Part shown: in pieces, positions 1 to 55,241 of the stretch
How the letters are laid out: every line of letters begins with the position of its first letter
Numbering within the stretch: the stretch's first letter is position 1
NCBI GenBank assembly: GCA_039815375.1
Contig: JBCBZJ010000005.1
Location: 32,001 to 96,000, forward strand
Source of the DNA: Verrucomicrobiota bacterium
Lineage (GTDB): Bacteria > Verrucomicrobiota > Verrucomicrobiia > Opitutales > Coraliomargaritaceae
Direction of reading: 5' to 3'
DNA: 64,000 nt
Translations under genes and position numbers: made by a program
The notes under the pieces: model-generated
What the model saw: the letters and a program-made list of their open reading frames with translations, nothing else
The model's database searches: none
What the model was told of the DNA's origin: nothing

Positions 1-867
<867 letters not shown>

Positions 868-937: not shown

Positions 938-1129
938 TGACGCTAAATTTAACAGGAGGAAGCAGAGAAAACAGAGGGTTTAGTGACGCTATCTCTAACA
1001 GGAGGAAGCAGTTAGAATTGAAGCATGGATTGATGCTATTTCTAACAGGAGGAAGCAGAGATAGCAGAGGAGTTCGTGATGAATACTGTGTGGTGATTTA
1101 TAAACAGGAGATAACAGAGAGAGCAGAGG
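938..1129. repeat. Four degenerate direct repeats, consensus approx. TGA(C/T)GCTAxxTxTAACAGGAGGAAGCAGAGAxAGCAGAGG
   Basis: Copies start at 938, 984, 1031 and 1094 (spacing 46, 47, 63); TAACAGGAGGAAGCAG is exact in the first three copies. Confidence 0.9.
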
Positions 1130-1552
1130 CTAGGCTGACGCTGTTGCGGAAGAATGTTTATTGTAGAGTCGGCTCACGCCTTCGGTGAGGCGGGCGACGT
1201 TGAAGTTGATTAGAAGTCCGACCGGGAATCGGAGGAGTCGGAGGTAGGAGAGGGTTTGCGCTTTATGCACGGGAGTGACTGCTTCGACGGACTTAAGCTC
1301 GGTGAGGACTTTATCATCGACGATTAGATCACAGCGCAGGCTCTCCTCAAAGACGAGGTCCTTGTATGCGATATTGACCTGTGTCTGTTGCTCGACCTGA
1401 TGCCCGCGAAGTTGCAGTTCATGAATCAAGCAACGCTCATAAATCGATTCCAAGAGACCAGGCCCGAGCGCACGGTGCACTTCGATCGCCGCAGCAATCA
1501 CTTTGTGTGTGAGCTCAGGATAAATGTCCTGGTTGTTGGATACGTCGTCCAT
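1130..1552 (-). CDS. GxxExxY family protein (PD-(D/E)XK-like nuclease fold)
   Basis: AAIEVHRALGPGLLESIYE (GxxExxY motif), RCDLIVDDKVLTELKS, AQTLSYL, GLLINFN. Confidence 0.93.
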   Translation of the reverse strand: MDDVSNNQDIYPELTHKVIAAAIEVHRALGPGLLESIYERCLIHELQLRGHQVEQQTQVNIAYKDLVFEESLRCDLIVDDKVLTELKSVEAVTPVHKAQTLSYLRLLRFPVGLLINFNVARLTEGVSRLYNKHSSATASA

Positions 1553-1578
1553 CTCTGTTCTCTCTGCTATCTCCTGTT
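1553..1578. repeat. Inverted copy of the 938-1129 repeat unit, between the gyrB stop and the GxxExxY start
   Basis: CTCTGTTCTCTCTGCTATCTCCTGTT is the reverse complement (24/26) of AACAGGAGATAACAGAGAGAGCAGAG at 1103-1128. Confidence 0.92.
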
Positions 1579-1583
1579 AGAAT

Positions 1584-4136
<2,553 letters not shown>

Positions 4137-23905: not shown

Positions 23906-26074
23906 TTAGTGATCTTCTAGTAAGAGTTGAAGCATCTTCCTGGCAGAGTCAGGGATCACTGTGCCTGGACCGAAGATAGCTTTTGCACCGTACTCGTAGA
24001 GATAATCGTAGTCTTGTTGAGGAATGACACCACCGCAGACGACCATGATATCCTTGCGGCCGAGCTTCTCCAATTCCTCAACAAGTTGTGGGAGCAGGGT
24101 CTTATGACCTGCGGCGAGGGAGGACATCGCAACGACATGGCAGTCATTTTCCACGGCCTGACGGGCGGTCTCTTCAGGAGTTTGGAAGAGCGGGCCGATA
24201 TCGACGTCGTAACCGAGGTCCGCGTATCCGGTGGCAACCACCTTCGCGCCGCGGTCGTGTCCGTCCTGCCCCATTTTTGCGATCATGATACGAGGGCGGC
24301 GGCCCTCTTCTTCTTCAAATCTGGCGATGAGTTCCTTAATGTCGTTCATAGCGTCACTGCTCCCGAATTCCTTGGCGTAGACGCCGGAAATGGAGCGTAT
24401 GTTGGCCTTGTAACGACCGACCACCTTTTCGACGGCGTTAGAGATTTCACCGAGGGTCGCGCGTTTTGATGCTGCGTCAACCGCAAGCGCAAGCAGGTTG
24501 CCTCTGCCGGTCTTGGTCGCTTCGGTGATGGCTTTGAGCGCCGTCTTTACGGCTGTATTGTCGCGACCGGTCTTGAGCTCTTTGAGGCGTGCGACCTGAG
24601 ACTCGCGGACAGCGGTGTTGTCAATGTCGAGAATTTCAAGCGGGTCCTCCTTTTCGAGGCGGTATTTATTGAGGCCGACGATGGTTTCTTTGCCGGAGTC
24701 GATCCTTGCCTGACGACGTGCGGCGGCTTCCTCGATGCGAAGCTTTGGAATGCCTTCCTCAATCGCTTTGGTCATGCCGCCATAGCCTTCACACTCCTCG
24801 ATGTGTCCCCAGGCCTTGTGCATGAGCTCGTGGGTAAGGGCTTCAACATAGTAGCTGCCTCCCCATGGATCGATGAAGCGGCACATGCCGGTCTCTTCCT
24901 GAATAAAGAGTTGTGTGTTCCGTGCGATACGTGCTGAGAAGTCAGTCGGTAGGGCGATCGCTTCGTCAAGCGCGTTGGTGTGGAGCGACTGGGTATGTCC
25001 GCAGGCAGAGGCCATCGCTTCAATTGCTGTGCGAGTGACGTTGTTGAAGGGATCCTGCTCGGTGAGGGACCATCCGGATGTCTGCGAATGAGTTCGGAGT
25101 GCGAGCGACTTCGGATTCTTCGGATCGAATTGCTTTACAATCTTTGCCCAGAGCAGACGTGCGGCGCGCATCTTGGCGATTTCCATGAAGAAGTTCTTAC
25201 CGATCGCCCAGAAGAAGGAGAGACGTGGGGCGAAGGCGTCGATGTTAAGGCCGGCGTTCACCCCGGTGCGGAGGTATTCGAGGCCGTCTGCAAGCGTGTA
25301 ACCGATTTCAAGGTCGGCGGTCGCGCCAGCTTCCTGCATGTGGTAGCCGGAGATCGAGATCGAGTTGAATTTCGGCATCTGCCGGGACGTATACTCGAAG
25401 ATGTCGCCTATGATCTTCATCGATGGTGTGGGCGGATAGATGTAGGTGTTCCGCACCATGAACTCCTTGAGGATATCGTTTTGAATGGTTCCCGCCAGTT
25501 GGTCGAGGGTGCATCCCTGTTCGAGACCTGCCTGAATATAGAAGGCGAGGACTGGGAGAACCGCGCCATTCATAGTCATGGAAACGGAGACTTTGGACAG
25601 GTCGATTTGGTCAAAGAGCACCTTCATGTCTTCGATCGAATCGATCGCGACGCCCGCCTTGCCGACATCACCGACAACACGGGGGTGGTCGGAATCGTAT
25701 CCTCGGTGGGTCGCCAGATCAAAAGCTACCGAGAGGCCCTGCTGGCCCGCTGCAATATTACGACGATAGAATGCGTTCGATTCCTCAGCTGTGGAGAAGC
25801 CTGCATACTGGCGAACCGTCCATGGACGGAAGGCATACATGGTTGCATAAGGCCCGCGTAGGTTTGGAGCGATTCCTGCCGTGTAGTCGAGGTGCTCCAT
25901 GCGTTCATAGGCGTCCTTGCCGTAGAGCGGGTCGACCTTGATCTGCTCCATTGTCTCATTGACAAAATCGTCAGGGTTTTTGCCGGTTTCAGCTTTAACC
26001 TGCTCGGCCCATTCTTTCCGTGTTGCTGAAGGTTTTGGTGCTTCGTAGCCGATAGTGGAAAAGTTCGGTTTCAT
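23906..26074 (-). CDS. mutB: Methylmalonyl-CoA mutase, catalytic (large) subunit
   Basis: [30 protein letters not shown]12-binding motif, SSLAAGH. Confidence 0.97.
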
Positions 26075-26121: not shown

Positions 26122-28269
26122 CTACAGAACGCCCAGACCTTCGAGGTAACGGCGGTTGATCTCGTAATTATTCGATTTCACAAAGATGTAGTCATCCATA
26201 CCAGCGGCTTTGAACGTCTCCTCGTTGTCTCCGGGAAAGCCAGCAAGGACGACCTGCATCTCAGGTATGGCGGTCTTGATCGCTCGAGCGAAGTCAGCAA
26301 ATTTCTCCGCATAGTCCGAGTCTGTGCCGCAGACCACGGTGATGCCTGATCCGGATTCCTTTAGAGCGGTTACAGCGTCTGCCGGCTCATCGAATCCAGG
26401 TGGCGAGATGAGCTCGAAGCCGCCTGCGGCAAAGAAACCTTTGGTGAAGTCAGCGCGTAGCTTGTGGCGACGGAGCGGCCCTAGATTGGTAAGAAATATT
26501 CTTGGTGCGCTGCCGGTTTTTTGGGCGAATTCCGCGGAAGCAGAACGGAGGTCTTCGTAGCCTGCGGCAAGGCGGATACTGGGAAGCGGTGTGATTGCTT
26601 CGGTCGGTGCAGCGTGGGCACGGATGGTGCGTGTGACCTCGCCGATCGTTGCGCCGTTTAGGATTGCTTCGACTAATGTATCGAAAGCGTTCGTGCGTGT
26701 TGACTCGAGGATTTTTCCGAGCGCAGACATGACTTTAGCATCGGTATCTTCGTCGGTCGCGGTCCGTGCTTCGGCGATTTCTTTGGCTCGGAGGTCGCGG
26801 AGCTCGGCGTAATCTGGGATAAGGCTTTCGAGTTGTTCTTCTTCGAGATTCGGGTAGACGTTGGTGCCAATCAGGCTCGTGCGGCGTTGATTGAGCTGCC
26901 TACTGTTAACGGCATTAGTCGCGGCGAGCTTTTCCGCGATAAAGCCAGAGGCCAGGGCATCGGTCATGCCGCCCTTGGCTTCGATTTCTTGGAAGAATGC
27001 CCAGGATTTCTCGCTGACTTCATTGGTCAACCACTCAATGGCCCAAGATCCACCGGCTGGATCGACCACGGAGGTGAGCTCACATTCTTCTTGTAGGATG
27101 ACTTGCGTGTTGCGGGAAATTCGGCGGCTGAATTCATCCGGAACGCGTGTGACTTCATCGAAATTACCGACACATAGACTATCAACACCACCGATCACGC
27201 CACTGAGCGCTTCTGTCGTGGTGCGCAGCATATTTACATAAGGGTCCCTTTGGGTTTTATTGTATAGACCAGTGCGGGCATGCATGTTGATCTTTTGGGC
27301 CTCAATGCTGCCTCCGAAGGCTGCTACGACTTGTGCCCAGAGCACGCGAGCGGCGCGAAGCTTGGCGATTTCAATGAAGAAGTTTCCACCGATCGCGAAG
27401 CTAAAGCGAACTTGTTTGGCTGCTAAGTCGACACTCAGGCCCCGTTCAGTCAGCTCCGTCAAATAGGCGACGCCGGTTGCCAGTGCGATACCTAGCTCCT
27501 CAACTGCAGAACCGCCTGCCTGGTGATACGGCAAGGTGGAGATGCCGACTGATTTTACACCGGGAGCATGTTTGGCACAATATTCAGCGAGAATAGCTTG
27601 TTCTTCAAATAGTGTGTCGAGATCTGCAGGCAACTGTCCGGCTGCTGCTTTTACAGCGAGCGGGTCCATGCCGAGGCTGCCTTTTAATCTGCCCGGATCC
27701 ATGCCCAGCTCCCTTAGCCAAGCAAAGACGAGAGCACCGACTGCCATGCCGGAGCATCCGGTGCGGATGTGGAAACTTATAGCCTCCGGGATGATACCCT
27801 TAAATGCGGTCCTGATGTCGTTGAGGCAGGCGAGCGAAAGACCGCAGGCTCCGACTTCGCCGGCGTTTGCTGCGTCGGGGTCGAGGCCTTTCAAGGTTGC
27901 GATATCCAACGCGACATTGAGCGAGTTTTGACCACGCATGAGGTCGGATGTTGCCGCGCGGTTAAATTCGAGCGGTGTGCCGTAGGGAAGCTCCTGGGCG
28001 ATTTCCCAAGGATCTTCACTGTAGCCGGCAGCGCTCGTGCCGCGAAGGTAGTTGTCGAAACCGGGCAGCGTCTCGGCTGCGGGTAAACGATCTAGAACGT
28101 CCTTCCAGAGCATTGGTTCCAAGAGGATGCCTTCCGGAGTTATGCGCTTCATGATCTTATCGAATGGAGCGCCTTTGAGGAGCTTTTCTGCAGCTTCCCG
28201 CCACTCCTCTTTCGTGGGTGCTTCAAACTCATCGAGGAGGGTCATGTTGTCGTCAGCTTGCTCTTTCAT
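26122..28269 (-). CDS. mutA: Methylmalonyl-CoA mutase, small (non-catalytic) subunit
   Basis: EIAKLRAARVLW, DPYVNMLRTTTEA, VDPAGGSW; lacks DxHxxG. Confidence 0.93.
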   Translation of the reverse strand: MKEQADDNMTLLDEFEAPTKEEWREAAEKLLKGAPFDKIMKRITPEGILLEPMLWKDVLDRLPAAETLPGFDNYLRGTSAAGYSEDPWEIAQELPYGTPLEFNRAATSDLMRGQNSLNVALDIATLKGLDPDAANAGEVGACGLSLACLNDIRTAFKGIIPEAISFHIRTGCSGMAVGALVFAWLRELGMDPGRLKGSLGMDPLAVKAAAGQLPADLDTLFEEQAILAEYCAKHAPGVKSVGISTLPYHQAGGSAVEELGIALATGVAYLTELTERGLSVDLAAKQVRFSFAIGGNFFIEIAKLRAARVLWAQVVAAFGGSIEAQKINMHARTGLYNKTQRDPYVNMLRTTTEALSGVIGGVDSLCVGNFDEVTRVPDEFSRRISRNTQVILQEECELTSVVDPAGGSWAIEWLTNEVSEKSWAFFQEIEAKGGMTDALASGFIAEKLAATNAVNSRQLNQRRTSLIGTNVYPNLEEEQLESLIPDYAELRDLRAKEIAEARTATDEDTDAKVMSALGKILESTRTNAFDTLVEAILNGATIGEVTRTIRAHAAPTEAITPLPSIRLAAGYEDLRSASAEFAQKTGSAPRIFLTNLGPLRRHKLRADFTKGFFAAGGFELISPPGFDEPADAVTALKESGSGITVVCGTDSDYAEKFADFARAIKTAIPEMQVVLAGFPGDNEETFKAAGMDDYIFVKSNNYEINRRYLEGLGVL

Positions 28270-50768: not shown

Positions 50769-50844
<76 letters not shown>

Positions 50845-55159: not shown

Positions 55160-55241
<82 letters not shown>

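Follow-up and report, generated by a model that had tools for sequence, protein, structure and literature searches.

A GxxExxY nuclease-family gene framed by inverted repeat arms between gyrB and gyrA

Results

The gyrB-gyrA junction

Near the start of the window, by which we mean the whole stretch of 64,000 nucleotides analyzed here, gyrB and gyrA are separated by a gene of the GxxExxY family set between inverted copies of a 26-nt repeat, the arms (Table 1). A preliminary description of this DNA had an open reading frame (ORF) stapled by 26-nt inverted arms between the two gyrase genes, and that anatomy is exact: its coordinates and its pairing were both reproduced. Of the 26 positions at which the left arm and right arm copy 1 face each other, 24 form Watson-Crick pairs, one a G-U pair, and one an A-C mismatch. 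The inventory of arms given with it stands for the two that bracket the gene but overlooked three right-arm copies farther downstream and eleven copies in the rest of the genome. The arms around the gene exceed what chance would provide, as a comparable inverted-repeat score was reached, at a lower threshold, by one of 300 control genes.

Table 1. Parts of the gyrB-gyrA junction, in window coordinates
Feature	Position	Strand	Remarks
gyrB, 846 aa	1584..4124	-	upstream host gene; stop TAA 1584-1586
gyrB last 24 codons	1587..1658	-	tract in common with second carrier G059; putatively co-transferred with the cassette
5-nt spacer between gyrB stop and left arm	1579-1583	-	
Left arm, 26 nt	1553..1578	-	three CNRAG-type words, 9-bp pitch; abuts ATG
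GxxExxY / PDDEXK_3 gene, 140 aa	1130..1552	-	ATG 1550-1552, TAG 1130-1132
Right arm copy 1, inverted	1103..1128	+	stop codon, then one base, then arm
Right arm copy 2	1044..1069	+	
Right arm copy 3, partial	997..1012	+	outer 16 nt
Right arm copy 4	951..976	+	predicted pairing partner of left arm in full transcript
gyrA first 15 codons	823..867	-	0/45 bases different in G059, 3/45 in G100
gyrA	1..867	-	downstream host gene; continues beyond window edge

Neither a sigma-70 promoter nor an intrinsic terminator was found between positions 800 and 1800 of the window. The spacing of the right-arm copies (46-59 nt) might call to mind a CRISPR, a reading that was rejected, there being four degenerate copies of an arm that is also dispersed. 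Rfam matches in the 64-kb window were two tRNAs only. Far from the junction, two tRNA genes (50769-50841 and 55165-55238) lie either side of a 4.3-kb block of three ORFs, and a 72-nt direct repeat (25136-25207 and 27325-27396) falls within two neighboring long ORFs (23906-26074 and 26122-28269) that are probably paralogous genes.

A small protein of the PD-(D/E)XK kind

The ORF matches TIGR04256 (GxxExxY; E 1e-42, 145 bits against a curated cut-off of 35) and PF13366 (PDDEXK_3; E 6e-41, 140 bits against a curated cut-off of 22). Pfam and NCBIfam returned PD-(D/E)XK families only, and neither database gave evidence of an HUH tyrosine transposase or of any other transposase gene in the cassette. 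The motif that names the family reads G32-x-x-E35-x-x-Y38 in this protein, which retains E35, D75, E85, K87, and Q99-Y103; across 110 aligned sequences the catalytic residues D75, E85, and K87 are invariant, as are G30, Y38, and Y103. Compared with the same gene at L061 (see below), dN/dS is 0.14, indicating purifying selection.

A structure model built from the 110-sequence alignment has a pLDDT of 91 (50 when predicted from the single sequence) and resembles Cas4, lambda exonuclease, Hjc, and restriction-like folds, with modest scores and each match weak: Foldseek E-values were 5e-3 or worse, none reaching 0.001, and the best Z was 7.5 (rmsd 4.0, 120 aligned). By sequence, the search for a solved relative yielded none, the best E being 0.42. 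Going by the model, the protein looks like an intact minimal nuclease.

GxxExxY matches are present in 163 of 301 genomes of the phylum, and a single scan of viral_contigs produced 43 pattern matches, none of which was confirmed. In its accessible text, PMC3424549 gives the function of PDDEXK_3 as 'Unknown' and reports multiple transfers; the accessible part of 10.1101/2021.01.26.428298 names GxxExxY merely as a Cas4 look-alike.

Arms at other GxxExxY loci

The preliminary description supposed that bracketing inverted repeats should recur at other GxxExxY loci, and they do. From 209 gathered loci (an uneven sample, mostly from this phylum and from metagenome relatives of this protein), 205 with a near-full domain were reduced to 164 below 90% identity and then to 149 with sufficient flank. 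Arms were scored as an inverted match joining the two flanks, with a score of at least 14. By this test the gene is bracketed in 108 of the 149 non-redundant loci. The same test picks out 1 of 300 control genes, and 34 of 300 pairs in which upstream and downstream flanks had been mismatched. Matches in direct orientation reach the threshold in 42 of the 149 loci, because arms exist in both orientations. The design common to the arms is a T-rich lead followed by three CNRAG-type words 8-9 bp apart.

Laid on a quick and weakly resolved protein tree, arm type requires 40 changes, while shuffled labels require a mean of 90.5, and none of 200 shuffles was as low. The AACAG-type arm is a case in point: all 58 loci that have it are on this protein's side of the tree. 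Since kin share arm labels, such clustering shows co-inheritance rather than co-evolution. There is some association between residue 15 and the words, T15 going with G-type words in 31 of 43 instances and S15 with A-type words in 42 of 55, but with just four independent pairs it is unable to reach significance.

Gene and arms also occur together. A pattern for other arm types was found in 65 of the 75 family genomes with TIGR04256 and in 1 of the 25 without it. Most of the latter are small, related genomes, but the contrast persists within genus g12, where the figures are 10 of 10 and 1 of 9. A genome may carry up to 13 GxxExxY copies, at unrelated housekeeping junctions, and some genomes have many more arms than genes, as in G079, where 48 matches to the arm pattern accompany 6 GxxExxY genes. 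Relative to their neighbors the genes are oriented no differently from others: by a crude frame caller, both neighbors have the same orientation at 55 of 110 loci, the opposite orientation at 14, and a mixed or unclassified arrangement at 41, which equals the result for control genes (60 both-same and 12 both-opposite of 200). Searches of the main text of mostly open literature turned up no description of a link between gene and repeat. GxxExxY gene and repeat arms together make up a widespread and, as far as that literature goes, apparently undescribed element.

Arm copies within this genome

Fifteen copies of the arm in strict frame are found in this genome, in three clusters (the reversed pattern, as a control, gives none): four at gyrB-gyrA, eight as doublets, and three singly on another contig. 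The eight make up four inward-facing doublets, 9-14 kb from the cassette on the same contig (C12) and of the cassette's polarity. They sit within a larger duplicated unit, amid toxin-antitoxin-like genes and other repeats, and so are not independent insertions. Arms are also found singly and far from any GxxExxY gene. The genome's two other GxxExxY genes have inverted arms too, of different sequence, and one of these two genes lies between metK and ahcY (gene names read from translations).

The surroundings of the doublets are of interest in themselves. Locus L340 (G000:C12:17000-23500) is a variable region in which several pairs of toxin-antitoxin-like genes are found and arms belonging to other families adjoin one another. 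A unit of 200-400 bp occurs there four times, each time with an arm doublet and an ORF of 64 codons; comparable pieces are found in G017 and G058. A second, unrelated family of 80-bp palindromic repeats, starting GGTAGGGAC, has at least nine copies (G000:C12:18072-18159, and on C11, C14, C33, C54, and C59) and looks like a GTAG-type REP doublet.

Occupants of the gyrB-gyrA junction in related genomes

Of 93 family genomes, two have the cassette at gyrB-gyrA: the genome described here and G059, a member of another genus (L061 is the same DNA as G059 and was counted once). None of six loci of other families has it, and contig ends interrupt 2 of the 93 junctions. In G059 the array is complete, with four right arms. 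This agrees with what the preliminary description had proposed, a transposase-free, patchy cassette in an essential operon that is not vertically conserved at its site.

The two carriers are much closer in and around the cassette than elsewhere. Codons for the same amino acid differ at 30 of 121 positions in the ORF, compared with 246 of 567 in gyrB and 144 of 256 in recA. Over the last 24 codons of gyrB only 2 of 72 bases differ, the lowest value among 600 pairs of like distal divergence (median 18%), for an edge window picked after inspection of the data, and the beginning of gyrA is identical. G059 differs more than this from its own congeners, by 11-13 of 72 bases at the gyrB edge and 11-12 of 45 at the gyrA edge. 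A cassette and adjoining gene edges far closer than the remainder of the genes bear the mark of transfer by recombination; the spread by recombination that had been suggested beforehand gains positive evidence here, and a second case at gatA-gatB (see below). An exact empty allele, a target-site duplication, or a cut site could be defined at none of gyrB-gyrA, gatA-gatB, and dxr-ispG. The outer flanks are T-rich at both ends, extending the inverted repeat (there being no empty site for comparison).

Other things may occupy this junction. In 6 of the 93 genomes it holds a gene of the four-helix-bundle family TIGR02436, or its remnant, with hexamer repeats, and in many others it holds other short repeats. 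The six (G007, G017, G058, G046, G100, and G110; loci L268, L266, L265, L272, L269, and L284, respectively) belong to five genera, and the TIGR02436 gene is framed by inverted runs of the hexamer repeat. About the last 20 bases before gyrA in G100, G017, and G058 are common with this window. It is as if, of the four-helix-bundle and GxxExxY cassettes, one had taken the place of the other at gyrB-gyrA. The four-helix-bundle gene is equally patchy here, so host recombination alone can shuffle the junction even where no nuclease takes part. Over its last 100 residues (window 1587-1886), gyrB is 97-98% identical to that of G100, G045, and G014, which are of other genera, but only 85-93% identical to that of congeners; this may be read as one more indication that gyrB ends are mosaic.

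Other junctions

At gatA-gatB, where 30 loci were examined of 94 matches, 12 of the 30 hold GxxExxY genes, of two subfamilies with different arms. Others contain cassettes reduced by deletion, or doublets that lack the gene and belong to several arm types, among them a doublet in G059 (L396) with the arm type of the gyrB-gyrA cassette. G018 and G004 have doublets that derive from a full cassette by deletion. The cassettes of G107 (genus g12) and G066 (g9) differ by 5/125 in the ORF and 3/24 at the gatA edge, compared with 47/94 in distal gatA, which is a clear case of recent transfer between genera. In the other 24 of 25 orthologous gatA-gatB pairs, the ORF has diverged about as much as the flanks or more (in one pair, slightly less), and since these pairs are without clear recent transfer, long residence is the rule. 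Near-identical GxxExxY proteins are encoded at unrelated junctions, gatA-gatB and pheS-pheT.

In one genus, 4 of 21 dxr-ispG loci are filled (gene names read from translations). At L348, L349, and L351, which are dxr-ispG loci of genus g36, the frame of the upstream gene contains the left arm among its final codons. In L350, L353, L354, and L362, close relatives of GxxExxY carriers, a different repeat family, of tandem units of about 44 bp with a palindromic core, is expanding at dxr-ispG. At L374 and L375, the gatA-gatB loci of G081 and G085, toxin-antitoxin-like genes or their remnants lie between arms, an arrangement that suggests that arms can bracket cargo besides GxxExxY.

RNA stem or DNA sites

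The ORF had been described beforehand as the loop of a long RNA stem. A stem is indeed predicted: the left arm forms duplexes of -44, -42, -33, and -44 kcal/mol with right copies 1 to 4, and the junction region folds better than its shuffles (z -4.8, 20 shuffles). In the predicted fold of the full gyrB-gyrA transcript, however, the left arm pairs with the farthest copy, number 4 (probability 0.92), and with the adjacent copy 1 (0.945) only in a transcript ending there.

If the stem were under selection in mRNA, its mismatches should favor G-U over A-C. On the mRNA strand, there are 102 G-U and 101 A-C mismatches over the 108 loci, 28 and 38 in 32 framed pairs, and 18 and 19 in 15 orthologous gatA-gatB cassettes; as a control, the tRNA acceptor stems of this genome have 20 and 0. 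Both arms come within 3 nt of start and stop in 14 of the 108 loci, and at many loci the place of a single long stem is taken by arms that are doubled locally or repeated in tandem to either side. The claim of an mRNA intervening sequence is not supported by these counts, nor is the accompanying expectation that arms would abut start and stop with covarying bases; the preliminary description was probably wrong about RNA excision. The gatA-gatB cassettes have four columns with two Watson-Crick types and recurrent non-pairing mismatches at the word's free base. In L061, the sole change in arm 1 relative to this genome turns a C-G pair into U-G, which keeps the pairing.

The positions of the words are fixed, while the spacers match between left and right arms at just 0.61-0.68. 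At free positions, arms of the same locus are somewhat more alike than arms of different loci (0.68 and 0.59, p 0.01), a likeness that pairing would produce too. Fixed words with loose spacers at constant pitch resemble protein-binding sites, to judge from their sequence. The genome encodes RNase III (rnc), and the predicted stem may silence translation or be cut as a side effect.

Discussion

We incline, by a little, to the view that this is a selfish cassette acting at the level of DNA, whose nuclease binds its own arms and promotes its own copying by recombination. At the level of genome comparison, the layout, its generality, the co-inheritance of arm and protein, the co-occurrence of gene and arms, the many junctions, the transfer across genera, and the decay to doublets are demonstrated. 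The rest might proceed as follows. The cassette, having no promoter of its own, would be expressed from the operon of its host. The protein, several copies together, would bind the words of the cognate arms on double-stranded DNA and would nick or cut at or near the arms, giving recombinogenic ends. By homologous recombination within the conserved ends of the two neighboring genes, the cassette would then be copied into that junction in other genomes and, more rarely, would reach a new junction. Perhaps the same nuclease activity spreads or maintains gene-less arms. Later, internal deletion would reduce the cassette to gene-less hairpin doublets, and the RNA stem would be a by-product that may damp translation.

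Passive movement by host recombination is the strongest rival. Here the gene would be a passenger or domesticated, its protein using the arms as an operator or working for the host; the cassette would move only through the exchange of short operon junctions by ordinary host recombination, and the nuclease would have no part in the spread. We think this unlikely, but there is a good deal that agrees with it: the gene is under purifying selection (dN/dS 0.14) and has long been resident in 24 of 25 gatA-gatB pairs, it is oriented as ordinary operon genes are (55 against 14 of 110; controls, 60 against 12 of 200), and at gyrB-gyrA a four-helix-bundle gene, which is not a nuclease, is just as patchy, with the gyrA edge of G100 common with this genome. 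A passenger would not be expected to reach as many as 13 copies in a genome, spread over unrelated housekeeping junctions, with subfamilies that replace one another at a single junction and decay by deletion, nor to be so outnumbered by its arms (6 to 48 in G079), nor to keep its catalytic residues invariant. An mRNA intervening sequence, whose stem hides the start codon and whose ORF RNase III removes from the gyrB-gyrA message, strikes us as improbable. The duplex is strong enough (-44 kcal/mol; fold z -4.8 against 20 shuffles) and is comparable to the 28-bp stem of the Coxiella 23S intervening sequence (PMC4990558, in the portion consulted), rnc is present, no promoter-like or terminator-like site is found in 800-1800, and the only change in arm 1 at L061, C-G to U-G, is one that RNA would tolerate as a pair. 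Yet G-U is not preferred (102 vs 101, 28 vs 38, 18 vs 19; tRNA 20 vs 0), non-pairing mismatches recur at the word's free base, stapling from start to stop is seen at just 14 of 108 loci, doublets or tandem copies stand on either side in many, the partner predicted in the full transcript is copy 4 and not copy 1, and arms occur singly or distant from GxxExxY genes.

Two further accounts keep the nuclease and alter its task. Classical free-standing homing would have the protein cut a cassette-less gyrB end or gyrA start, repair then copying the cassette, with the arms as accessories. Short flanking tracts were co-transferred in two cases, as this account would have it, a PD-(D/E)XK homing endonuclease exists, and free-standing homing endonucleases of phage cluster near essential genes (PMC10448857, so far as its accessible text goes). 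We nevertheless give the account very little credence: near-identical proteins are found at unrelated junctions (gatA-gatB, pheS-pheT), it is the arm and not the flanking gene that tracks the protein, and the cassette is rare at gyrB-gyrA (2/93). Equally hard to credit is a role like that of a RAYT, a fairly stable resident gene that chiefly copies gene-less arm doublets in trans. Gene and arms do co-occur, and doublets with the polarity of the cassette are found in this genome and at gatA-gatB of G059 (L396). But there are only 15 framed arms in three clusters, with four doublets in one duplicated unit, the doublets of G018 and G004 derive from a deleted full cassette, and the GxxExxY gene is itself multi-copy and mobile.

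How does a DNA-level cassette of this kind compare with known elements? Insertion sequences with terminal inverted repeats, and Tn7, have inverted ends with repeated binding words, and TnsA of Tn7 is a PD-(D/E)XK nuclease serving transposition. The cassette differs from insertion sequences in its size (about 0.5 kb) and in having no DDE, HUH, or serine transposase and no target-site duplication that could be found. REPtrons/TIRtrons and the REPIN-RAYT system, as portrayed in the accessible portions of PMC3733652 and PMC3116915, are like it in placing a nuclease gene between inverted copies of a repeat that is dispersed as singlets and hairpin doublets, its type matching the enzyme. The enzyme that defines the REPtron is, however, an HUH tyrosine transposase (PMC3733652), and that of the cassette is PD-(D/E)XK. 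The cassette's arm, moreover, is three words at 9-bp pitch and not itself a GTAG/CGTC-tagged palindrome, its gene is multi-copy and inside housekeeping operons, and repeat copies are far fewer here. Intervening sequences of 23S rRNA that carry an ORF (S23p, a four-helix bundle) likewise place it in a loop closed by a stem of 26-28 bp and are sporadic, according to the available part of PMC4990558; the related four-helix-bundle family, TIGR02436, is itself at gyrB-gyrA in 6 of 93 genomes. The cassette, in contrast, lies outside rRNA, encodes a different protein, and shows nothing to suggest that RNA pairing is under selection. Free-standing homing endonucleases are similar in being intergenic beside essential genes, replaceable at the spot, with flanks that move along (accessible part of PMC10448857), and differ in that the cassette has inverted arms cognate to its protein, recurs with near-identical proteins at sites that are unrelated, and belongs to cellular chromosomes. 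Within the PDDEXK_3 account of PMC3424549, the cassette's protein is a member, and the accessible text makes no mention of flanking repeats or of a habit of settling at operon junctions.

It is conceivable, and we advance it only tentatively as something rather less than probable, that GxxExxY cassettes form a separate class and are, of all nuclease elements that propagate themselves in bacterial chromosomes, the smallest. A PD-(D/E)XK protein of 130 aa would then read the three words at each end of its cassette, cut there, and drive replacement of junction content via the ends of host genes, competing with four-helix-bundle cassettes and leaving behind widespread hairpin repeats.

New from this locus are the G-U test and two transfers across genera with their flanking tracts. 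The arms offer a very common family that lacks a function, GxxExxY, a testable substrate together with natural variants in specificity. If the nuclease does drive its own spread, this would be a new chemistry for mobile elements and would account for a large family of intergenic hairpins. It would also be an unrecognized reason for marker genes such as gyrB, gyrA, and gatA to have mosaic ends.
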